64,000 nt of DNA from Octopus vulgaris. Its lineage: Eukaryota. This document shows, piece by piece, positions 1-51,837 of the stretch. The stretch lies in NCBI GenBank assembly GCA_951406725.2, contig OX597816.1, positions 36,890,001-36,954,000 of the forward strand. Reading direction: 5' to 3'. The position numbers and the translations under genes are program-made. The notes beneath the pieces were generated by a model, which did no database searches, was not told the DNA's origin, and was given only the letters and a program-made list of their open reading frames with translations. The first letter of the stretch is position 1. Every line of letters starts with the position of its first letter.

Positions 1-1247
1 ATCCAATGGAAGACATTAGCCAAGTGTAAGCCCTACACCAACGGCGGTGGAAAATGCGGTCTTTGTGATATGTAAAGATGGCTCATCTGGAAAAGCAGCT
101 TAGACCCCGCCACATGTCTAAATTCAAGAACTGAAGTCTTCGGATCATATCCACATGTGGTTATATATTTGTTACGGTTTTGGTCCCCCCGAGATTACAG
201 ATAGGACTTGCTTTTTATATTGTGCCCACATACAAGCTTTCTATATCTCTATACTTTTTACGTATATTTCTTATATTTTTTTAATATATGTTTTTACATA
301 TTTATATAGATATTATTTTATAGTTTTATTGCCCATTTATTTTTTTACACATAATTTTTCTCTATTCTACTTTCCACCCTGCATTTTTCCTGTGCGTATA
401 TAGACGTGTATATAGATTTTTTTGTGCACGCGTGTATATATATATGCGTGTGTGCGGTTATGCGCATGTATAAACGTGTGTGTGTTCGTGCATGCGAGTA
501 TGTGCGTATATAGACGTGTTTTACTCTTATTGCTTATTTTTTACACCTTTTTTACACATTTTTCTGTATTTTGCCTCTAGCCCTGTTTTTCTTGTTCATT
601 TGCGTATATAGACGTGTGTCTGTGTCTGTGTGTGCATATATAGACGTGTGTGAGTATGTGCCTATATTAAACGTGTGTGTGCGTGCATGCGAGTGTGTGC
701 GTATATAAACATGTTTTACTCATATTGCATATTTTTTTACACTTTTTATACATTTTTCTCTATTTTGCCTCTAGCCCTGATTTTTCTTGTGCATGTGCGT
801 ATATAGACGTGTACGTGTACCTTTTTTGTACGCGTGGGTGTGTATGCGAGCGTGGGTGTGTATGCGAGCGTGGGTGTGTATGCGAGCGTGTATGTGGGTA
901 TGGATATATTTTTTGGTGAATGCGTGGGTGAGCTTGTGTGTGTTTCCAGTGAGGGTGGATGAGTATATACATATAGGCGCACGCAGGTGGGTGTGTGGGC
1001 GCGCATGTGTAAGTATGGACGTGCGCTTTTATGCGATTACTTTGAACATTTTTACTCCCTTACCTTTACTCCCTCCCCTTAGTTAGCGGTCATTCTAATA
1101 GATGTTTTGTCTTAATAATGGTCAATCACACAGTAATTTCCCTTTGTTTCAACGGTCATTTTCATAGCATTTTTTTTTATGGCTGGATAACTGAAGAGAT
1201 GGCGGCGTGGGTTTCTACTCCGATATCCGAAACTCGGATGTCGGAGC
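1..1247 (+). mobile_element. 3' part of a Penelope-like element (end of GIY-YIG domain, 3' UTR, partial hammerhead)
   Basis: Frame 1 of 1-160 reads IQWKTLAKCKPYTNGGGKCGLCDM*RWLIWKSSLDPATCLNSRTEVFGSYPH, matching the W..L...PY..CxxC..LNxRxE...PH end also seen in ORF 2832-3515. CTGAAGA at 1191 and GAAAC at 1229; abuts (ATAG)n. Confidence 0.7.
832..885 (+). repeat. 18-bp tandem repeat, 3 copies
   Basis: GCGTGGGTGTGTATGCGA repeated three times. Confidence 0.9.
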
Positions 1248-1248
1248 G

Positions 1249-1456
<208 letters not shown>

Positions 1457-1632
1457 TTCCAAATTTAGGTTAGTTGAAACATGTGACAAACATATTTTCG
1501 ATGTAACGCCGGCATTATTATATTTGCTGCCGACAAAAAACTATGCTTGCACGGTGGATTTGAAAAATTGTAATATATAAGCACGTTGCATATGCTGGAT
1601 TGCCTCGTATTTATATGTTTACTCTTGGCGTA

Positions 1633-1702
1633 CCTGTTGATGAAGACTCCGCCTAGCAACTTATTTTATTTGCTACTATAGAGTCAGAAACCATGGACCA
1701 GG
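1633..1702 (+). ncRNA. Degenerate type I hammerhead ribozyme (PLE terminal remnant)
   Basis: cctg-TTGATGA-a-gactc...gagtc-a-GAAAC-catg-GAC-cagg: stems I and II pair and the stem III loop is palindromic, but two core bases are substituted. Confidence 0.6.
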
Positions 1703-1983
1703 AGATAGATGGTAAATGTTATTATTTTTCATTCCCTTCGTAATTTATCCCTAACAGTGGTTTGGATTTTGGCTATTCCTTCAAGCTTGCCAGGTATCCT
1801 ATGATGGTTACCTCTTATGTGTTTAAAAGTACTCTGTATTTATATAAATAATATATTGACTAATTTTTCTACACTCTAGACCACAAGTAGTAAAATCTTC
1901 AAAAATATGTTCTTAATCTGATATTATTAACATATATATATATATGTGTGTGTGTGTGTATCTGTGTGTATGTATTATGTATG

Positions 1984-2039
<56 letters not shown>

Positions 2040-2040
<1 letters not shown>

Positions 2041-2247
2041 TTTATTTAAAGCAGCAGAAAATTCAACAAAACCTGTTACTCTGAGTTTCCCGTTGCCGTT
2101 CATCGGACAGTTTTTTTACGGCAACGGGAAACTCAGAGTAACAGGTTTTGTTGAATTTTCTGCTGCTTTAAATAGAGCATATTACTCTACCACTGGTATT
2201 TGAGTACTCTTTTTTTCCACCTTGTTTCACATTTATGTGTTTACTCC

Positions 2248-2250
<3 letters not shown>
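2040..2250. mobile_element. Small fold-back PLE-terminal element inside (TA)n
   Basis: 60-bp inverted arms 2040-2099 and 2118-2177 (one mismatch), about 70-bp unpaired tail, (TA)n on both sides. Confidence 0.8.
2073..2110 (-). ncRNA. Minimal type I hammerhead ribozyme (CCGATGA core variant)
   Basis: Minus strand ctgt-CCGATGA-a-cg-GCAA-cg-g-GAAAC-tcaga-GTA-acag. Confidence 0.7.
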
Positions 2251-2313
<63 letters not shown>

Positions 2314-2366
2314 GTGAAGGGAAGAAATGGAGCCGAACGAAGATTCTACAAAATTCCTTTTTATTG

Positions 2367-2450
2367 TTTTCTACACATGTTTCAAAGGCTGCAAATTCCC
2401 AAATTCGGATTGAATAAGGAGACCATTCTGCAGCTTTCTCTTCAGGAAAA
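2367..2450 (-). ncRNA. Type I hammerhead ribozyme, intact core, long stem II
   Basis: ttttc-CTGAAGA-gaaagctgca...tgcagccttt-GAAAC-atgt-GTA-gaaaa. Confidence 0.82.
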
Positions 2451-2831
2451 TCTAGGAATTTAAAATCTCAAAACAAATGCGCAGCAAGCTTTTCGAACAA
2501 AACGCTCCCTAGGAGCCCATGGTAAAAATGGCACAAAACTGTCTCTCAATATGCGCTGACGTCAGAGTAGGTGAAGGCCGACGAAAAAATCCGTTGGAAT
2601 AAACCTAGGTCAAACCACGGTCAAATCAGGTAGGGGAAGAATCACAGAAAACCCAAAGAGTGTGAATATATTCTGTATAACTAGTGTTAATGTTCAAATT
2701 GTTTTAAGAATGACAGCTATCTTATTTGGGTGTGAGGAACTACCTACATGTATGTGTGTGTGTATGCGCCTATGTATGTGTGGCAGTATGTTAGGAAGCA
2801 GCTAGAGAGAAAATATATTGTATTGTAGGCA

Positions 2832-3515
2832 TTGCTGGTCAAGCGGCTGATAAAATTCTGTGTCTGTGTGTTCGTCTATGACCAGTTTATATACATTAAT
2901 GTAGAGAGTCCCAATAACAATTTTAGCAACGGGTTTGACAACAGTAGCATTACGGACATTAGCAATCACAGCGATCTCAGTGGCAGGGAATATATAGGTG
3001 ATATTCCATTAAATAGTATTGATAATGGGGTGTATAATGTCGAAGACAGCCGTAGTTCTCACAATCATAATAGTAATAAGAACGCCGTGTTAATATCGGA
3101 AGCCAATCCCAATAGAATAAGGTTATTATCTAGTAATTCCAAGATTAGAAATGCCATTTACCAATGCAGAGTTTATACTGGATCGGATGTCTACTCGTAT
3201 ATCGGAGCGTCATCATCAAAATTGGCAGTGAGAATATCGAACCACTTCACAACTTTTCGCGATTTTAGAAAACAACACGCTACCGGACTAAGTAAATTAA
3301 TCTGGCGTTTGAAGAACGCGAATTCAGCATTTAGACTGGAATGGTCGATTTTATCGGTGGCTGTACCGTTTGATAGGGGCAAAAGAATCTGTAATCTCTG
3401 CAACTCTGAACTTTTTCACATTTTGTTCTCACGAGGGCAGCTCGTTAACGGGATTTTGCAACACTCTTTCAGATGTCCCCACTGGAGGCGACTGACATTT
3501 CTTGCATACATTTGA
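2832..3515 (+). CDS. GIY-YIG endonuclease domain of a PLE; open frame without ATG or RT
   Basis: AIY..YIG, R..H, LSKLIW.LK, W.IL, CNLC..E, LVN, CPH motifs. TTG start lies in the inverted arm and there is no internal Met. Confidence 0.8.
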   Translation: MLVKRLIKFCVCVFVYDQFIYINVESPNNNFSNGFDNSSITDISNHSDLSGREYIGDIPLNSIDNGVYNVEDSRSSHNHNSNKNAVLISEANPNRIRLLSSNSKIRNAIYQCRVYTGSDVYSYIGASSSKLAVRISNHFTTFRDFRKQHATGLSKLIWRLKNANSAFRLEWSILSVAVPFDRGKRICNLCNSELFHILFSRGQLVNGILQHSFRCPHWRRLTFLAYI

Positions 3516-4139
3516 AGCCTAAGATAATTAACACCTTGATGTCCTAAGAAAAGAAAAAAATTGCTTGGAAGAAATTTGGGAAAAATTTTGAATTAAATTT
3601 GAAAGGGAAAATTACTCCCCTTTTAGCGTATGTTCTGCTACTCTTTTAGAAACAATATCAGGGATTATACTCCCCTTCTTTTTGACAAGTCATCTGTATA
3701 TAAACTGGTCATAGACGAACACACAGACACAGAATTTTATCAGCCGCTTGACCAGCAATGCCTACAATACAATATATTTTCTCTCTAGCTGCTTCCTAAC
3801 ATACTGCCACACATACATAGGCGCATACACACACACATACATGTAGGTAGTTCCTCACACCCAAATAAGATAGCTGTCATTCTTAAAACAATTTGAGCAT
3901 TAACACTAGTTATACAGAATATATTCACACTCTTTGGGTTTTCTGTGATTCTTCCCCTACCTGATTTGACCGTGGTTTGACCTAGGTTTATTCCAACGGA
4001 TATTTTCGTCGGCCTTCACCCACTCTGACGTCAGCGCATATTGAGAGACAGTTTTGTGCCATTTTTACCATGGGCTCCTAGGGAGCGTTTTGTTCGAAAA
4101 GCTTGCTGCGCATTTGTTTTGAGATTTTAAATTCCTGGA

Positions 4140-4223
4140 TTTTCCTGAAGAGAAAGCTGCAGAATGGTCTCCTTATTCAATCCGAATTTGGGAATTTGCA
4201 GCCTTTGAAATATGTGTAGAAAA
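4140..4223 (+). ncRNA. Type I hammerhead ribozyme, right-arm copy
   Basis: Reverse complement of 2367-2450 with GAAAC changed to GAAAT. Confidence 0.75.
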
Positions 4224-4431
4224 TAATAAAAAGGAATTTTGTAGAATCTTCGTTCGGCTCCATTTCTTCCCTTCACTAAATATATAAAACTTCAATTATC
4301 CGCGCTAAAGCACGGGGCGAAACCCCATGGTGGTAACCTCAACCGTGTCTTTTCTGGTGTGATTTTTGCTACACAGGTATCGGTTAAATTTTGAATAATC
4401 CGTAACAAGATAATTCATTTATACATTTCAT

Positions 4432-4476
<45 letters not shown>

Positions 4477-4579
4477 GTATGTATATGTAAATATATTAAT
4501 GTGTTCACGTATACTATATGACTTTAGGTCGTAAAATTGCAAATTAATAACCCATATTATATATATATGCATATATATA

Positions 4580-18188: not shown

Positions 18189-18267
18189 TAATATATATAT
18201 ATATATACACGTATAGCGTATATATATATATATATATAATTTGGATTTATTCCCTAATATTTATTAT

Positions 18268-18353
<86 letters not shown>

Positions 18354-18359
<6 letters not shown>

Positions 18360-18775
18360 TAATAAATATTAGGGAATAAATCCAAATTTACAGGGAAAAA
18401 TCAGATTTAGGATTGAATCCAATTTTATAGTAAAATATTATATAATATTAATTAGAGACAAAACCACTATTATGCAAATCAAACAAAGAAAGACTTAATC
18501 CAATACATAAAAAATTTTATATAAATTAAATAAAATTAAGTTATCCACTACAATTGTTTCTTGTCACTTCTAAGGACATTCAGACCTTCTATTCAATTTT
18601 AAATTATGAATTTAAAATTGAATAGAAGGTCTGAAAACCACCTGATGAATGTCCTTAGAAGTGACAAGAAACAATTGTAGTGGATAACTTAATTTAATTT
18701 AATTTATATAAAATTTTGTATGTATTGGATTAAGTCTTTCTTTGTTTGATTTGCATAATAGTGGTTTTGTCTCTA

Positions 18776-18790
<15 letters not shown>
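18354..18790. mobile_element. Fold-back PLE-terminal element inside (TA)n
   Basis: Tail 18354-18437, inverted arms about 18438-18582 and 18646-18788, nested hairpin 18579-18635. Confidence 0.82.
18638..18683 (+). ncRNA. Type I hammerhead ribozyme, intact core
   Basis: ccac-CTGATGA-a-tgtc-cttagaagt-gaca-a-GAAAC-aatt-GTA-gtgg. Confidence 0.85.
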
Positions 18791-18826
<36 letters not shown>

Positions 18827-20604: not shown

Positions 20605-20805
20605 ATTTATTATATAGAAGGAGCTTCTACAGGACTAGAACTGTTTCATTCAAGAGAAATCATCAGGAAGCTCCTGATGATTTCTCTTGAATGAAACAGT
20701 TCTAGTCCTGTAGAAGCTCCTTCTATATAATAAATTAATTTTACTCTGCTATGTATTGAGTACCTTATTTACTGTGGTTAACCCCGAATCAACCCGGGAC
20801 CTACA
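20605..20805. mobile_element. Fold-back PLE-terminal element inside (TA)n
   Basis: Perfect palindrome 20605-20735 with 3-nt centre, plus about 70-bp tail. Confidence 0.85.
20622..20672 (-). ncRNA. Type I hammerhead ribozyme, intact core
   Basis: agcttc-CTGATGA-t-ttc-tctt-gaa-t-GAAAC-ag-ttctagtc-ct-GTA-gaagct; core repeated on plus strand at 20674-20712. Confidence 0.85.
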
Positions 20806-20838
20806 TATATATATATATATATATATACATACATATCA

Positions 20839-20867
<29 letters not shown>

Positions 20868-20872
<5 letters not shown>

Positions 20873-21035
20873 AATATTAGGGAATAAATCCAAATTTACA
20901 GGGAAAAAATCAGATTTAGGATTAAATCCAATTTTATAGTAAAATATTATATAATATTATTAGAGACAAAACCACTATTTTGCAAAACAAACAAGGAAAG
21001 ACTTAATCAATACATAAAATTTTAATAAAAAGTCA
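20868..21035 (-). mobile_element. Second, truncated copy of the 18354 element tail
   Basis: AATAAATATTAGGGAATAAATCCAAATTTACAGGG..GACTTAATC nearly identical to 18358-18520; abuts (TA)n. Confidence 0.85.
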
Positions 21036-21797
21036 ATATATATATACGCACACATTGACACTATAGGTTTTCTTTTTAATCTATTTTAATTCAAGAAACA
21101 TTCTTTCATAGCGTGCATCAAGTACTTTACTAGCCAATCCACTGCAGTTTGGGTCGAATATGTAGCAACATTAAAGATGTTAATTTTATCGACTTCATAA
21201 TTTACAGACAAAATTTGTAATTTCTTGGTATGAACTGAAATTTCATATTCATTTACTAGTCAGTGTTTGTGTGTTTGCGTGTGTGAGTGTCTGTGTGAGT
21301 GTGTGTGTGAGTGTCTGTGTGAGTGTGTGTGTGCGTATGTTTGTGCGTGTGTGTGTGTATAGGTATGCAAAGTTTTATTTGCAGTATAGAAACCTCATTT
21401 CTTTTCCTTAGAACTATATTTTCTAATCACTTTTACACATATAAATGGTTCAGAAATAGTTGAAATTCCATCCAAGAGAAGTACAATAATAGATTCTATT
21501 GTTTAAGCAAAAGTTTTCCGCAGACTTATGATTAAATTATATTTCGTAAATATAATAAAAATACATTTTTTGAAAATGTTTGTTTGCATATGAGAATTAT
21601 AATTAAATTTACTGTCATGCTTTTTAATTCTAGTGAATAGTGTGCATTTGTGTTATTCTTCTAAAACATCATGTCTGATGCCCTATTAAACAAATCTATG
21701 AACTGAATATGATCACTGTCTTTCACGTTGACAAATATTATAAACATTTGCATGTGTGTATGTGAGTATGCATGTACATATATGTACAGATACATAT

Positions 21798-24819: not shown

Positions 24820-26190
24820 GTAGAATAAGAATCAAAGTTAGACAAACGGAGTTCACATATACATTTATTCAGCCCTAGACCCAACATGCATGGATTTCTC
24901 TAAAAGTATATTTAATAAATCAAACATATTAAAATTATATAGATATATAAAAACATATAGAGAAATCATTACATTAAATGTATACATATAAAATATATAA
25001 ATATATTGATATATACATTGAAAATATATCGAAAAAATAAATACATATATGAGTCGACTTACAGATTATAAAACGAAATCATAAAAAGAGTTAAGAGTCT
25101 ATAACATAAAATGTGAGGATTTTAATAATCCAGTTAATAATCCTACGACCGTTTCTGGGGGGGGGGAGATTTTCCAGGGATATAAAAGATATTTACATTC
25201 ATTATGGGACACCACCTCCTTCATCAGAGAAAAATAAATTTCTAAATAAGCTCATATGTACTGCCTTTTTCCTAATGGGAATTACCTACTGAGTGTTTTC
25301 GTAGAGCTATATGCAAAAGACCCGGGAGTAGAAGCGTGTTTGAGTGGTTGGAGGAGGGGATGTGTGGAAGCTGGTTCTCAACTCTATCCAGAATCAAAAT
25401 GCATAAATTTTGAGGAGTGAAACCTACGTTTAAGAGAGTAGATGGCGTCGGGAAATGTATTTAATATTGATGAGCTGTGTAGTTTAATGCTTCTTTTAAG
25501 CATAGTTGGCATTCGCCTATAATGTATTATAATGTTGAGCTTCTTTTATTATGGACCAAGCCAGTGTATATTGTATATTTTATGATTTAAGATCATGTGT
25601 GTGTGTGGCTAATAATCCCGAGAATTTGGAGTTGTCTTAGTGAAAGAATTTAAGTGAGCTTGATATCAACATCTAAAGTATATGGTACTGCCTATATACC
25701 TCTTCGCTTGGTGTTTACCTGATGTTTCTACACAACATTTATAAACCACATTTTTACGTAGGCAAATGCCCCCAAGCGGGCATATATCAGATATACAACA
25801 GTTACAGGTTTTCCTTTTTGTTATACTATTTATATTGGTTGCGTTGCTATTTGTTGGACTAATATGGGGTGCTGTATAAGTGTTTGAGTGTGTATTAGTC
25901 TGAAGTCAGATTTTATATATATTAATAGAAGCTGTTATAAATCCTAAGCTTGGTGTGGTGGAGTAAGTCAATGTGACTGATGATTTGTTAAAGATAAAGT
26001 GGTATCTATGATGCTGAGGACAGTTAGATTTCAGAATTTTAAAAAATGGTTTAGGTAAAGATTTAACCTGAAGAGAAAAGGGTAGCGTGTACCATAGGAT
26101 TTCCTGTTTTCTAGTTTAGAATGTGCTGTTACATTGGATTGGTCACGAAGAGGAGATTTATAATTTCTATAAATTCTGGACGGCTTATGG
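24818..26190 (-). mobile_element. 5'-truncated PLE: linker, GIY-YIG, HHR, tail, (TA)n
   Basis: KILWYTLPFSLQVK..HHRYHFIFNKSSVTLTYSTTP, then CNCCISDICPLGGICLRKNVVYKC..YIGST. Confidence 0.85.
25141..25230 (-). ncRNA. Type I hammerhead ribozyme with expanded stem II
   Basis: tct-CTGATGA-aggagg...ctcccc..a-GAAAC-ggtc-GTA-gga, downstream of the GIY-YIG region. Confidence 0.65.
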
Positions 26191-32779: not shown

Positions 32780-33420
32780 CCCTCAATAGGATTTGTACTT
32801 ATCCCGTCACAGCTTAAGAAACCCTCCGTTATCTAACATATATGTATCATTACGATGTTAGTGTTAGTGATGCTGCTGGTTTGCTGCTGCTGCTATTGCC
32901 ACTTTTGCCCCATTGATGTTGTTACTCCCAAGTACCACATCTGATATAGTGGACCACAGCCTCGGAGTTACATCGACCGCCTGTTGGGCACTTACAATTG
33001 GCCCTACACAGTATCCTGCCTCCGTGTTGTATTTAGGAGCGTCCACTAAAATAGTTTTTACGCTGGGCGCACAGCTGAAGGTGACCATTAAGTTTTGTCT
33101 ATTGAATTATCGCACCAACGACGTATGGACGCGTGCACGGAAATATGTTATATAAACAGAAGATACGTTTAAGCTGCGACTAAATAAACACACGTCTCCT
33201 TTTATAATTCCCCAGAAATTCAAAGCTACGTCTTTGGCCAACTGCATATGTTTAAAGAAGAGTGAAACCCATTCAGGATTAAATGCAGGCTCCCAGAGCG
33301 ATTTGAACCACACCCAAACGGAAGCAGACGATGCAAATTTTGTTTGGCTGAGAGGGCAAGGACCCTAAAAAAATTTCTTGGTCCGGGAGACCGTCGTAAC
33401 TTAGAAGACAAAGTGAAGTA
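32780..33420 (+). mobile_element. Decayed PLE GIY-YIG fragment
   Basis: KYVI*TEDTFKLRLNKHTSPF..ATSLAN..PNGSRRCKFCLAER. Confidence 0.62.
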
Positions 33421-45283: not shown

Positions 45284-47055
45284 CAATTACATTTTGGAAA
45301 AATTAAAAGAATATTTACATAGTATTCAAATACAAGGGCATTTTGCTTGTTTCTGCCTGTCACTGTCTCTTTTGGTTACTCTTGTGAGTTCGGGGTCGTT
45401 GTGAATTCTTGGCACAGAAGGAGGAGGAGGGGGTGGGGGAGGAGGAGGAAGGGGAAGAGGAGGAAGAGGAGGATAAAAAGAATGCGGGAGTGCCATGATA
45501 CCAGTTGGATGTTAAATGGTCAAGTGCTCTGAAAGTGACTTGTTGTGGATGGTAGCATTGAGTGAATTCTTGAGACATCTCTTTTGAATGTATTGTTTAC
45601 AATATTTGCGTAGGTGTTATTCTAAACAGTAATAGTAGTAAATTAAGGAAGGTGGAGGCGGAGAGGAAGAAGACAAAGAGAAAATAATAAGGGAATGCAG
45701 GTGGTATAATATTAGTAGGATGTTAAAAGGTCAACTGGACTAAAAGTGACTCATTGTTAAAAGCTACATAAGGGACGACCTGGATATGCTCAGTCACCTT
45801 CCTGAAACAATAAACAAAAATACCCTTCTAGTATCCTTCGATGTAGTCAACCTCTATTCCAATATTCCTCACAACCTTAGAATAGCGACAATTCAATTGT
45901 GGCCAGAGATTTACACCTTCATAAAAAGCAAGCGACAACCCAAATCAATGAAAAGTCTCATAACACAAGCCTGAATACGCTCAACAACACAGAAGCCGTC
46001 AGTAAAATATGCGGAAGACCCAACTGTGAGATATGAGTCAATTTAATTGAGGGATCAAAGTTCTCCTTCAAACAGGGACAACGTTTCACAGTGCAAAGCA
46101 GCTTCATATGTGCTTCAGAAAACCTGATATACGCACTAACATGCTCTGGGTGACAAGAGCAATACATAGGCCAAACAAAAAACAGTCTACGTCAAAGGAT
46201 GGGTCTGCACAGATCCCAGACCAAAATTCCTCAAAATAGAAAAATAGCATTCAGCCAACACATCGACATTTGCGCCAATAACAAAAATCCAAGCTTCAGA
46301 ATTTTCCCCCTCTACCAATTCAGGGACGATGCAACCTGTAGCCAACGAATTAATAAAGATACTCTCTTTATTACAAAATACAGACCCCTGCTGAACGCAT
46401 CTACAACAAACGACATATCCACCACGGCCTTAGAATAACACAAACACACGCAAATATAAAAAATGATACATTCAAGAGATATCCAAGAATTCATTAAAAA
46501 ATAGTCCCAATCACTGCTATAATCCACAACGATCCGACTTTAGGTCACTTGACCATTTAACATCCTACTACTATCATACCACCTGCATTCCCTTATTATT
46601 ATCTCTTCTCTTTCTCCTTCTTTTTATTCGTCTTCTTCTTCTCCACCTCCTCCTTCCTTACTTTACTACCTCAAGAATTATTGTCTCAAGAATTCATTCA
46701 CTACTACCACCCACAACAAGTCACTTTCAGTGCACTTTACTATTTAACATCCGACTACTATCATGACACTCACGCATTCCGCATTCTTCTTCTCCTCCGC
46801 TTCCTCCTACGCCTTCTTCTTCTTCGTCACAAGAGTAAACAAGACAGAGTCAAGCAGAAACAAGGAAAATGCCACTTGGATTTGAATGCTATGCAAATAT
46901 TATTTTTAAAGACTTTTCTTTTAATTGTTTTCCATTCTTACAGTTGAAAAAGTCTCAATGACTGAAATCGGTACTGAAATGTTTTTGTTAGAAAAATTTT
47001 TTAGCATTTATTTCTTTCCATATATATAAACTAGTGCATTCCTTTTCAAACTTAT
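45280..47055 (+). mobile_element. Naiad-like PLE, internally deleted, with inverted terminal region
   Basis: SYIRDDLDML..LVSFDVVNLYSNIPH fused to KSKRQPKS..CGRPNCEI*..NLIYALTCSG*QEQYIGQT..R...H..H..LLN. 45290-45755 is an inverted relative of 46430-46935. Degenerate HHR at 46941-46976; ends in (TA)n. Confidence 0.85.
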
Positions 47056-47928: not shown

Positions 47929-50921
47929 TCATGAAGGCCTTCTAGCAGCTGCTATTTGGTGCATGAGAGAGTTCGATGCAGCTGCCCTCATCTGCCCCTC
48001 CTGCCGTGAAGTTGGTTCATCTGGGACACCTGACAGGAAGAGATCCAGCTTCATTTTAAAGACATCTGTATCCACCCCATGCAGGTCTCTCAGGTTCTTC
48101 GGGAGGATATTGAAGAGCTGTGGGCCTCGGAAGCCCAGGCTATCACAGAATCTTGTCCTACATCTTGATGGCAAGTTTGGAGTCCTAGGCACCACGCAGT
48201 GGCGCCCAGTTCTGGCATTTGCGTAACTCTCGATGCCAAAGTTCAGGACACTTCCCTCCAGGATCTTCCAGATGTATATTATGGCATATCTTTCCCGCCT
48301 ACGCTCCAGGGAATATAATTTTAATTTCCTGAGTCTTTCCCAGTAGCTTACATTCTGCATATAGGCTATCTTCGTGTAGCTACGTTGGATCGCCTCGAGC
48401 TCTGTGATCAATTTGACACTGGATGGTGACCATAACTGAGAGCAGTAGTCAAAGTGGCTTAGGACAAGTGTCCTCCAGAGGACCATCATGGTTTCTTGTT
48501 CTCTTGTTCTAAAGGTTCTGAGGATCCATCCGGCCAGTCGTCTACATTTCATTGCCAATTTAGCAACATCTACACGAAAGGTCGCGTCATCACTCATGTA
48601 AATACCTAGGTCACGCACTGATTGTGCCTCTGGGATTGCTATTCCTCCGGGTCCAGTGTATTCATTGGGTATTGCATTTAGTTTTGCATGCTGATAGTAT
48701 AGAGCTTGAAACTTTTCAGCATTGAACTGCATGCTATTCTTTTCGGCCCACTTGTATATTTTGTCTAGCTCACATTGCAGGTGTTTAGTGTCCTCAGGGT
48801 TCTGTATTGCCTGTGAAACTTTTGTATCATCTGCATAACTTGTGATCGTGGCTCTCTGCGTGGCTGAGGGCATGTCTGAGAGGGCCATTATGAACAGTAG
48901 TGGTCCCAGAACAGTGCCCTGCGGAACACCGCTCACTATTTGCGTGTTAATGGAAGTGGCCCCATTGGCCACTACCACCTGACTTCTATCTTTCAGAAAG
49001 TCATGAAGCCATTCTCCCAGTTTTCCAACTATGTTGAGATCACGCAGTTTGTGACATATCATTCCATGATCGACTTTATCAAAGGCCTTTGCAAAGTCGA
49101 GATATATCACTTCCACATTTGAGTGGTTGAGCAGCCGTTTCAGCACCTAGTCATAGTGTTGTAGGAGCTGAGTTAAACAGCTTCTCCCTGGTCGGAAACC
49201 ATGTTGGGTGTCGGGCAGCAAGTCATTTTCTTCAAGGAAGGTGATCAGCTTCCTTCTGACTATTCGTTCCATGACCTTGCTGATGTGTGAGGTCAGAGAG
49301 ATAGGTCTATAGTTCTTGGCTTCCGCTCTGCTACCTCCTTTATGAATGGGGCATATTTTACCTTCCTTCAGTTTTCTTGGACGTTTGCCAGCTGCAAGGA
49401 AGCTCTGAAAGAGGAACTGCAGTGGTCTTGCTAGGACTCTCTTACATGCTTTTAGGAGGATTGCCGGGAATCCATCGGGGCCAGTAGCTGAGTCTGTTTT
49501 CATTTCATCTATAGCCTTGATTACATCGTCTTCCTTTATATCGATGTAATCTATCGTCGCCGCCTCTGATTTTATATCTGCAGTGGTAAAAAAGTCAGTT
49601 GGATTAGTGATTTGGAGATGCCCAAGGGGTGGAGTGAAAACACTCTTGAATTGCTCATTCAGTATTTCACTTACCCTCATTGGTTTTCCTGTAAGTGTGC
49701 CATCCTTTTCGAGGAGTGGCCCTATTCTACAGTGCATCGTTGCTGTTTCTTTGGCATACCTGTAGAAAGCTCTGGGGTTAGATTTTATGTTGTCTATAGC
49801 CCAGGCTTCTTTGTCTGCTCTTTCCTTTTCATGGGAGAGTTTCAGACATTTTTCGATTTCCAACAGTTTTATTTTCAGGCGGGACTTTTCACTGCTTTCA
49901 ATCTGTTTGTTTAGGCGATTTGAAAATTTTGTACGCCGTCTCATTAGAATTTTCCTCTCTCTGGGGATTTTGTTCTTGTGTACAGTGGCCTTTCTCTCTG
50001 GGACATATTTGTAGCATATGGCTTGCATTACAGACATGAATTGTTGAAGTTTCACGTCGATGTCTGGCGAGGAGAGACATTTAGGCCAGTTTTGTTTGAG
50101 GATTTCTTTCTCAATTTGTTTCCAGTTTGCCTTATGGTAGTTCAAGCTGGAAAGATTCTGGGGTTTCTTGTAGGCTGCATGTCCGTGCTCTCTTTTGGCC
50201 CGTACATGGTCAGCTCTATCATGTTGTGATCCGAGAGTAGTGTCGGTGTCACTTTCACATTATGGATGAGATCCATGTCATTTGTGAAGCAGAGATCCAG
50301 TGTGTTACCTGCCCTGGTTGGTTGGAGTATTACCTGCTCCATGTACAGGGTGTTGATGAGGTTCAGGAGGGACCTCGCCTGTCCTCGTTCACATCTTGTC
50401 ATTCCTGGGAGAGAAAGGCCCTCGGGCCATCTGACATTTGGCAGATTGAAGTCTCCCATAAGAAGTACACTTATGTGTTGTTCTAATGTGGTTAGAACTT
50501 CTTCTATTTTTATAAGGCAGTCTTCAAACTTGCCCACATGGCTTGGGGCATCTGGAGGGCGGTATGTAGCACACACAACTACATCAAGTTGCCTAATATG
50601 TACAATTAGTGTGTCACACACCGAGTTTGAGTATGACAAGAGGACCTGGGGTGTGAGGTCCTCACGGATGTACATAGCAACACCTCCATGACTCCTTTCT
50701 TTCCTGTCGGTCCGTAGTACAGCATACTGTGGTATGTGTAACTCCGCATCTGCTATATCCGGTTTCAGGTGCGTTTCCGTTAGTGCTATGCATAAGGCTT
50801 GATTGCATGCAACAAAATCTCTCAGGAACGGGATTTTTGTCCTGTTACTGAGTGTTTGCAGTCCTCTGATGTTCAGTAGGAGCATCGAGGTGAGGTGTAC
50901 GTTGTTGCCGGTGGTGTCCAT
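47929..50921 (-). pseudogene. LINE ORF2 (apurinic endonuclease + reverse transcriptase), disrupted
   Basis: NIRGL, LTETHL, GDFN, SDH; YRPISL, QHGFR, YLDFAKAFD, GVPQG, YADD. Frameshift near 50150 and TAG at 49147-49149. Confidence 0.95.
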
Positions 50922-51780
50922 CCTGGGTCTATTTGCTGTGGTGGTGGTCTGGTATATAGTGGGTAGTCCCACCTGCGGGCTTGGGTTTGATGAAGCCAGG
51001 TCAGCTGCTGTACAATCTTTTGTGCCATGCACAAAAAAGATTGTTGCTCAGCAGCTGCCCTTTCGACAACATCATGTTGGCGGTTTGTGGCACGCACAAC
51101 ATCTGCGTACCTCCGCTTTGGGGCAAGTGGTGCGTGGTCCATCCCTTTTCCTTGTGTTGATGGTTTGTCCATCTGCCTTGTGTCTCTGTGGCAGGGTCCC
51201 CGATGTGCAAAGCGGCAGCCTGCACCTTCCTTTCCATGCCAGCAGGAACCTCTCAGGTAGAACCTACACACCTGTGTGCGCTGTCCGTTTCCATCTTTTG
51301 CGGTTCCACTTCTATTCCTGGTTTTTTCACCCTTTGGTCCTGCTTGAGCTTTTCCTTTAGCTCTACCAGCCCTTCTTTTAGTTCTTCCTCCTCCTCTACC
51401 TCTTCACCGGGTTCTCCGTCTCCATGGCCTTTGCTGCCGGTTGGAGAACTTGCACCTGGGTTCACTTCCCGGGCAGGTTTCTCATTCAAAACCTCCTCCC
51501 GGGCATCCACCAGGTGGGGGTGACTTCTTTCATCGTCTCCATTCTTGTCATCTTTGCCTCGCTCGTTCTCAAAGATGGCATCAAGTGCGCCAATGTGCGA
51601 CCGTACAAGCGCATATGAGCGCACGAATTCCCGTCTCTTTCGCTCCATCTGAGCCGCTGTCCTCTTGTAGCCTCTGCTCTTCAGCGCAGCCGCAATCACC
51701 TCGCTAGGGCTATCTCCGCCGGCGCACTCCCATGCTTGTACGAATAAATCCAGCTCGTCAGGTCTCCATGCTCTGGACAT
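50873..51780 (-). pseudogene. LINE ORF1: Myb/SANT-like domain, acidic linker, CCCH zinc finger; one frameshift
   Basis: WRPDELDLFVQAW..IAAALKSRGYKRTAAQMERK; C-x7-C-x8-C-x3-H (CRFYLRGSCWHGKEGAGCRFAH); frame change near 51275. Confidence 0.75.
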
Positions 51781-51837
51781 GCTGGATGATCTGTCTATTT
51801 GTTTATCTATTTAACTATGTTCGAGAGAAGACAAGAA

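Follow-up and report, generated by a model that had tools for sequence, protein, structure and literature searches.

In the typical form taken by insertions of Penelope-like retrotransposons (PLEs), as described in Craig et al. (PMC8557442, Craig et al. 2021), an inverted 5'-truncated copy of the element is present and a tail is carried on one side only. The same source gives (TA)n targets and hammerheads as features of the Hydra clade, which includes Hydra-1_Obim of Octopus bimaculoides, and ties the cysteine (Cys) linker to microsatellite targeting; its supplement lists hammerheads on both strands, together with an inverted 5'-truncated copy, for Penelope-13_HM of this clade. In Schistosoma, minimal hammerheads have been described on opposite strands, 100-700 bp apart and with an unpaired base before stem II (PMC4209133, Cervera and De la Pena 2014). 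In rotifers of the genus Adineta, in-frame N-rich inserts lie between the reverse transcriptase (RT) and the endonuclease (EN) of Pen2a, and truncated copies are flanked by inverted pLTRs (PMC3846280, Arkhipova et al. 2013). Finally, retrozymes are presented as non-coding PLE derivatives (bioRxiv 10.64898/2026.07.22.740005).

In this study, we have explored a 64-kb stretch of DNA from Octopus vulgaris (the window) and, within it, an insertion at 2304-4436 that combines a nuclease frame, inverted arms and hammerhead motifs. Based on our results, we consider with a probability of roughly 86% that it is a young, dead-on-arrival insertion of an EN+ PLE of a Hydra-derived lineage, truncated and inverted. 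Taken alone, the locus is unremarkable, since this genome contains many PLE insertions that are likewise truncated and inverted; what can be learned from it, which is modest, concerns the lineage that produced it and the way in which the copy was formed.

Anatomy of the insertion and its hammerhead motifs

The PLE proper occupies 2895-4436 on the plus strand and is a Hydra-like element, 5'-truncated, with an inverted and shorter copy at its 5' end. This inverted copy, on the minus strand at 2304-2895, reproduces the 3' end of the element without the tail, and its counterpart is the right arm, part of the 3' UTR or pLTR, on the plus strand at 3695-4286. The two arms are 592 nt each, 99% complementary and separated by 799 nt, and it is in the form of this inverted repeat that a pLTR is present. 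Aligned with each other the arms show 6 mismatches and 0 indels, in line with the identity of about 99% over 592 bp given by an earlier note on this DNA; 5 of the 6 mismatches are transitions, in both directions, and no editing signature is found among them. From the inversion junction 2895/2896, which cuts the 5' end of the linker, the plus strand reads through an N/S-rich, low-complexity linker of 70 amino acids (2895-3104), a short lineage-specific motif (3114-3143), a Hydra-type GIY-YIG endonuclease domain that is open to its stop (3144-3515) and a portion of the 3' UTR that is absent from the inverted arm and has no other copy in the window (3516-3694).

Outside the right arm only, the 3' end of the element is extended by a tail of 150 bp (4287-4436, plus strand), of the type discussed in PMC8557442 and PMC11167929. 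Both this tail and the 3' region of 920 nt exceed the 30-40 bp given as the usual length of a PLE tail, and no Hydra-like ORF start was recognized within 4287-4436. The tail also contains, at 4331-4381, an ATG and then a GT...AG stretch of about 44 nt that resembles a short intron, the removal of which yields a very short frame only. Target microsatellites flank the insertion on both sides, with 30 TA units on the left (2250-2309), which share a TA microhomology with the outermost letters of the left arm and so overlap it, and 18 on the right (4436-4471) as read from the repeat; no target-site duplication can be defined within (TA)n. If the arms were identical at insertion, their divergence of 1% and the open frame point to a young event. 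PLE insertions with inverted parts can be a source of problems in genome assembly (PMC8557442), which brings up a fold-back chimera formed in the assembly or in the library. However, the arms differ at 6 sites, the 799-nt spacer is unique, the arms end at TA sites internal to the element, and the flanks consist of separate (TA)n tracts and non-homologous DNA, so that we give an artefact next to no weight.

As the earlier note had it, each arm contains one outward-facing hammerhead; the cores (CUGAAGA...GAAA...GUA) lie at 4145 on the plus strand and at 2445 on the minus strand. The motif that is sense to the ORF covers 4139-4224, with an unpaired G (4152) before a 54-nt stem II, GAAA at 4207-4210 and a predicted cut after 4218; the motif of the left arm covers 2367-2450, with a 5-bp stem I, a short palindromic stem III and a predicted cut after 2372. 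Overall, stem I is 5-6 bp and stem III, which is palindromic, 2 bp, and a C-to-T change at 4211 makes helix III of the dimer less stable (-3.6 vs -7.4 kcal/mol). Core, stems and the unpaired base before stem II, as read from the sequence, mark both as putative minimal type I hammerheads located in a pLTR. A relaxed descriptor returned 6 cores in 64 kb, while 30 dinucleotide shuffles gave 0.67 on average and never more than 4. Rfam returned 0 matches in the window at the gathering threshold, hence no hammerhead, and 27 weak matches at E<=10 over 1000-4500, none of them a hammerhead; furthermore, the stability of the folds is not above that of shuffles (z -0.69 and -0.84). Because of these results, the ribozyme call rests on the core nucleotides, the stems and the position.

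The earlier note had also proposed that a transcript from either direction would both self-cleave and fold into about 590 bp of dsRNA, which we find doubtful. Whichever strand is read through, the antisense arm would be transcribed before the hammerhead, and pairing between the arms (-1110 kcal/mol) is far stronger than the ribozyme fold (about -14 kcal/mol). As each hammerhead lies within an arm, the duplex should sequester it and block its self-cleavage, making dsRNA and self-cleavage alternatives and not successive steps. In addition, metazoan PLE hammerheads with a short helix III showed no cleavage as monomers in vitro, as reported for the Schistosoma motif (PMC4209133). A host transcript spanning the insertion would thus be expected to form a long hairpin with the ribozyme sequestered. 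RNA editing is heavy in cephalopods, and the 592-bp hairpin, if transcribed in such an animal, could serve as a substrate for ADAR.

Three more inverted, hammerhead-bearing and (TA)n-flanked insertions, of unrelated sequence, are found at 2035-2250, 18355-18794 and 20605-20810. The first is a small inverted PLE end just left of the 2304-4436 element, with a 148-nt hairpin, a tail of about 70 bp, TA-repeat flanks and a minus-strand hammerhead with a CCGAUGA (U4C) core, and it is into its downstream (TA)n that the 2304-4436 element is inserted. The second is an inverted PLE end with an inner palindrome, a tail on the left and a complete hammerhead at 18642 (plus strand), whereas in its other arm a short deletion has removed the core; partial copies of this insertion lie at 18238-18271 and 20867-21038. 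The third consists of a near-perfect hairpin of 131 nt with hammerhead cores on both strands, a tail of about 75 bp and TA-repeat flanks. A CTCT...GTATT(T)GAGTAC-like motif is common to the tails of the first and the third, and can also be seen, by eye, in the 3' end given for Hydra-2_Amil. At the left edge of the window, 1-1255 is the 3' end of another Hydra-type element. It comprises a nuclease C-terminus (1-210), a long 3' UTR within which about 270 bp are duplicated and, near 1190-1250, a degenerate hammerhead, after which comes (GATA)n. Decayed Hydra-type nuclease remnants are located on the minus strand at 26115-25520 (the 25.7-kb copy, the only remnant to reach the RT thumb, which keeps CxCx5C), 23285-23031 and 16874-16626, with weak ones at 33191-33367 and 46109-46216. 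The window also contains a near-full-length LINE (47929-51810, minus strand) with an apurinic endonuclease and an RT in three long overlapping or adjacent frames and, upstream, ORF1-like frames, one of which has a weak Torus/zinc-finger match.

A GIY-YIG nuclease from a lineage without the Cys linker

The nuclease is encoded in a single stop-to-stop frame on the plus strand (2829-3515) of 228 amino acids, in which neither a Met nor an RT is present. As the initial 22 codons consist of left-arm antisense only, the element's own frame is 2895-3512, or 206 amino acids, the first 70 of which are 39% N+S, and it ends at a stop at 3513-3515. Without a borrowed start, this copy cannot produce a nuclease. 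The residues of a GIY-YIG nuclease are kept, namely Y (3159), YIG (3198), R (3231), H (3243), CxxC, E (3408), N (3447) and CxH, the two Cys motifs being CNLC before E and CPH after N; the near-invariant Y, G, R, H, CxxC, E and N of an alignment of 113 rows are all present. The CCHH motif is absent: in the translation, the segment that separates GIY from YIG contains a single Cys.

Pfam found no family in the ORF at E<=1, and a weak GIY-YIG in 2 of 16 homologs. With phmmer over 1.84 billion representatives, 1901 relatives were retrieved at E<=0.001, and the long proteins among the 150 matches listed have the order RT, thumb, linker and EN of the Hydra type. The AlphaFold model of 3075-3512 reached a pLDDT of 85.8 with the 113-row alignment (the model from a 6-row alignment, with 40.7, was uninformative), and the modeled fold matches I-TevI in VIA-align (Z 10.2, rmsd 2.4, 89 aligned), followed by T4 EndoII and UvrC. 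Foldseek with this model gave nothing at E<=0.001, yet ranked the same folds first. A PDB sequence search with the 113-row profile returned one chance match (E 0.84), and none of the 70 pattern matches from a scan of bacterial and archaeal genomes was confirmed. In the protein atlas, the whole frame falls near unnamed clusters and clusters in which 18% of members have GIY-YIG or 17% HTH_animal. The uninterrupted GIY-YIG frame, without RT or ATG and preceded by an N/S-rich linker, therefore stands as first noticed, the family being supported by the phmmer relatives and the I-TevI-like model in spite of the null result of Pfam.

We placed the nuclease in a tree of 56 rows (the window copy, the top 45 matches and 10 chosen longer matches, out of 151) with a midpoint root only. 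The window copy belongs to a clade of nine rows, with P0001-P0005 and three more matches, which has a support of 100/99 and a long stem branch (0.76). The six members of this clade with a readable linker have no CxCx5C, and have in common a R-x-x-(F/L)-L-S-S-x-S-K-like motif instead; in the window copy, the alignment and a Cys census identify it as RIRLLSSNSK, at 3114-3143 on the plus strand. In the same census, the linker contains 0 Cys in the window copy and at most 1 in P0001-P0005, as compared to at least 2 in 80 of the 104 listed matches having at least 24 residues upstream of the nuclease. The other 24, with at most 1 Cys, are P0001-P0005 and 19 others; in many of these 19, what lies upstream seems to be unrelated sequence or to be read in the wrong frame. 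The 25.7-kb element does contain CxCx5C (minus strand, about 25760-25810), and the lack of a CxC..CP motif relative to that element, remarked upon earlier, is thus real. As judged from these alignments, loss of the Cys linker is a property of the whole lineage and not damage to the window copy. N/S-rich linkers also occur in ordinary Hydra-type matches, such as P0118 (89 amino acids, 48% N+S) and the RT-core-bearing P0095 (54 amino acids, 50%).

Among the features that define the Hydra clade, the window copy shows an EN without CCHH, the CxxC/CxH residues and, in one copy, insertion into (TA)n; the CxCX5C linker before the EN is absent, and the clade is further defined by RT signatures (RWK, DKT, no IFD) and by placement in an RT tree. 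Since one Hydra-defining feature is missing, we call the element Hydra-like and not a strict member of Hydra. In a literature that is short on subscription papers and Repbase, no Hydra lineage without the Cys linker was found described, and this nuclease clade, in which CxCx5C is replaced by the R-x-x-(F/L)-L-S-S-x-S-K-like motif, appears from its sequence to be new, if modestly so. A lineage without the Cys linker that is still found in (TA)n, here in one copy, provides a natural setting in which to learn whether target choice depends on the linker or on the core of the nuclease.

Truncation, reverse transcriptase and a possible route of insertion

The best named relative, P0001, is a gene model of Octopus sinensis in which 110 of 134 residues (82%) are identical. 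P0001 matches from the junction codon onward and then continues for 62 amino acids further upstream into more N/S-rich sequence, in which no RT thumb is present. As the relative extends past it, we would say that 2895/2896 is a truncation point rather than the boundary of an element RT-less by design. Between the window copy and P0001, the EN and the residues just before it are conserved at 66 of 72 positions and the linker at 44 of 60 (Fisher p=0.009), and this stronger conservation of the nuclease region suggests selection in the parent lineages, as would be expected of lineages that were once active. In NCBI/UniRef, P0001 bears the name 'probable serine/threonine-protein kinase dyrk1', which we regard as a mislabel due to low complexity, the protein being a fragment of this PLE lineage. 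Its C-terminus leaves the nuclease after HATGL, perhaps in a spliced chimera.

These data also bear on the idea that the whole arm-nuclease-arm unit is the mobile element, either of a fold-back or TIR type of DNA element or as a fixed RT-less cassette. Long, near-identical inverted arms around an intact nuclease frame are what such a unit would look like. Nevertheless, the left arm interrupts its frame, which lacks a start, P0001 extends beyond the junction, the structure is asymmetric with a tail on one side, no second copy of the inverted unit is found in the 64-kb window, and comparable inversions have affected unrelated PLE ends three more times in the first 21 kb; we therefore hold this to be very improbable. 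The homologs that extend past the junction, along with the published PLE layouts, agree instead with the main reading of the earlier note, a 5'-truncated PLE with an inverted end.

A second relative, P0002, informs on what lies upstream. It is 50% identical, belongs to the same EN clade and, ahead of its linker, contains a Hydra RT-thumb motif that shares the frame of the nuclease. This thumb scores 23.9 bits against a profile of 11 thumbs, the best of 1000 shuffles reaching 10.1; ordinary Hydra thumbs score 88-121 bits in 11 of 11 leave-one-out tests, and the second half of the P0002 thumb dissolves into N/S-rich sequence. The RT of P0002 may, on this sequence, have decayed. Its residues 1-80 gave 0.85-0.86 only in the protein atlas, a lead at most. 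The telomerase-related RT that an EN+ PLE has in the same ORF is absent from the truncated window copy. Three RT-core queries found nothing in the window at E<=1, and none of the other Hydra-type EN remnants there, 4 clear (one cut by the window edge and one reaching the thumb) and 2 weak, has an RT core; missing an RT is thus usual for the nuclease remnants of this window, in keeping with a truncation at 2895/2896. An RT core was found in 0 of the 9 clade rows of the tree, no RT-fused longer relative was found among 1961 candidate proteins of 362-2000 amino acids, which is weak evidence, and a near-length profile search retained 3 of 1588 candidates, all already known, with no RT core for the lineage. 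As only 3 of the 150 matches listed have an RT core at all, its lack in this lineage is weak evidence as well.

It is on these grounds that we keep, as unlikely, the reading that the copy is 5'-truncated but comes from a parent lineage whose RT was itself lost or decayed, that is, a non-autonomous nuclease and hammerhead element that would borrow the RT of autonomous Hydra elements, with its Zn-binding linker gone, its GIY-YIG domain under selection and (TA)n still targeted. The far more diverged thumb of P0002, the loss of the Cys linker across a clade with a long stem branch, the retention of the EN catalytic residues, the lack of an RT-bearing member among the proteins searched and the existence of retrozymes as non-coding derivatives of PLEs (10.64898/2026.07.22.740005) would all fit with it. 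However, a thumb motif remains in frame with the nuclease, full PLE ORFs are rare in protein collections, and the 206-amino-acid frame has no start codon. Moreover, outside Terminons no mobile EN-only PLE is described in the literature covered, short on subscription papers, and no cross-mobilization was seen between the Adineta families treated in PMC3846280. If the lineage were truly RT-less, it would represent a mobile nuclease and hammerhead element served by an RT in trans, and would stand, as an intermediate that still codes for protein, between autonomous PLEs and retrozymes. The RT-less nuclease and ribozyme element that the earlier note had envisaged does not find support at this locus, given the extension of P0001 past the junction, the thumb upstream in P0002 and the precedents for the layout.

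We thus return to a truncated and inverted copy of an EN+ PLE, and to how it could have arisen. For a PLE of Anolis, the results in Frangieh et al. (PMC11167929, Frangieh et al. 2024) indicate that the protein cuts AT-rich DNA on both strands, and that reverse transcription starts from two internal RNA sites that bracket the tail, hammerhead cleavage not being needed. By analogy, one possible mechanism would be that the nuclease of a parent with an intact RT cut the (TA)n tract and that reverse transcription of the RNA set out from two internal sites close to the 3' end. One cDNA, begun at the outer of these (4436), would have come to an end within the linker (2896), some 1.54 kb on; the other, begun 150 nt inward of it (4286), would have ended at 3695 with a length of 592 nt; and the two would have been joined head to head in the (TA)n tract. 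Priming from two starts followed by head-to-head joining could account for the inverted arms, a hammerhead on each strand, the one-sided tail and the absence of both an RT and a start codon. This near-intact copy would then record two candidate RT start sites 150 nt apart, which bears on the origin of PLE tails and inversions.

Both outer ends of the element follow TAAAT and run into TA repeats. We also observed that TAAAT stands just before the tail-less arm ends in three inverted insertions and at the tail end of the 2304-4436 element, the fourth insertion ending after TTAAT (TAAAT/TTAAT sites at 4278-4286, 4432-4436, 2170-2175 and 20730-20737). A common preference in RT start or in cutting is possible, in what is a very small sample on an AT-rich background.

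Comparison with known systems

The stand-alone GIY-YIG ORFs of bdelloid Terminons resemble the window copy in having no fused RT and in lying near hammerheads, as described in parts of PMC6431247 and PMC8557442. Those ORFs, however, are complete, keep CX2-5CxxC and CCHH and belong to giant telomeric elements, whereas the window frame is truncated and has neither motif. Non-LTR retrozymes and solo minimal hammerheads have in common with our locus a type I hammerhead derived from PLE pLTRs, and opposite-strand pairs have been ascribed to truncated PLEs (PMC4209133). The retrozymes, as described, are non-coding head-to-tail tandems, while the window locus is arranged head to head and contains a nuclease frame. 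Pen2a of Adineta vaga is similar in its N-rich, in-frame spacer between RT and EN, in the inverted pLTRs of its 5'-truncated members and in its optional tail; it differs as a rotifer family with an insert of about 1.5 kb, for which a full RT is documented.

The closest systems are the EN+ PLEs of the Hydra clade. Like them, the window element has a C-terminal GIY-YIG domain without CCHH, with CxxC and CxH around E and N, a putative minimal hammerhead in its 3' end and a (TA)n target, and it shares with Hydra-1_Obim and other Hydra elements, in the published sequences compared, a CUGAAGA-G core, an unpaired G and a short palindromic helix III. It departs from the clade by the lack of CxCx5C, the long N/S-rich linker, the 54-nt stem II and the 150-bp tail. 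By eye, Hydra-1_Obim, in the sequence available in the source, is not the window element, as it keeps the Cys linker and has another nuclease and another hammerhead. The arrangement of the insertion is nevertheless that listed for Penelope-13_HM, in which a 5'-truncated copy lies inverted and both strands have a hammerhead, and such a layout is ordinary for PLEs.
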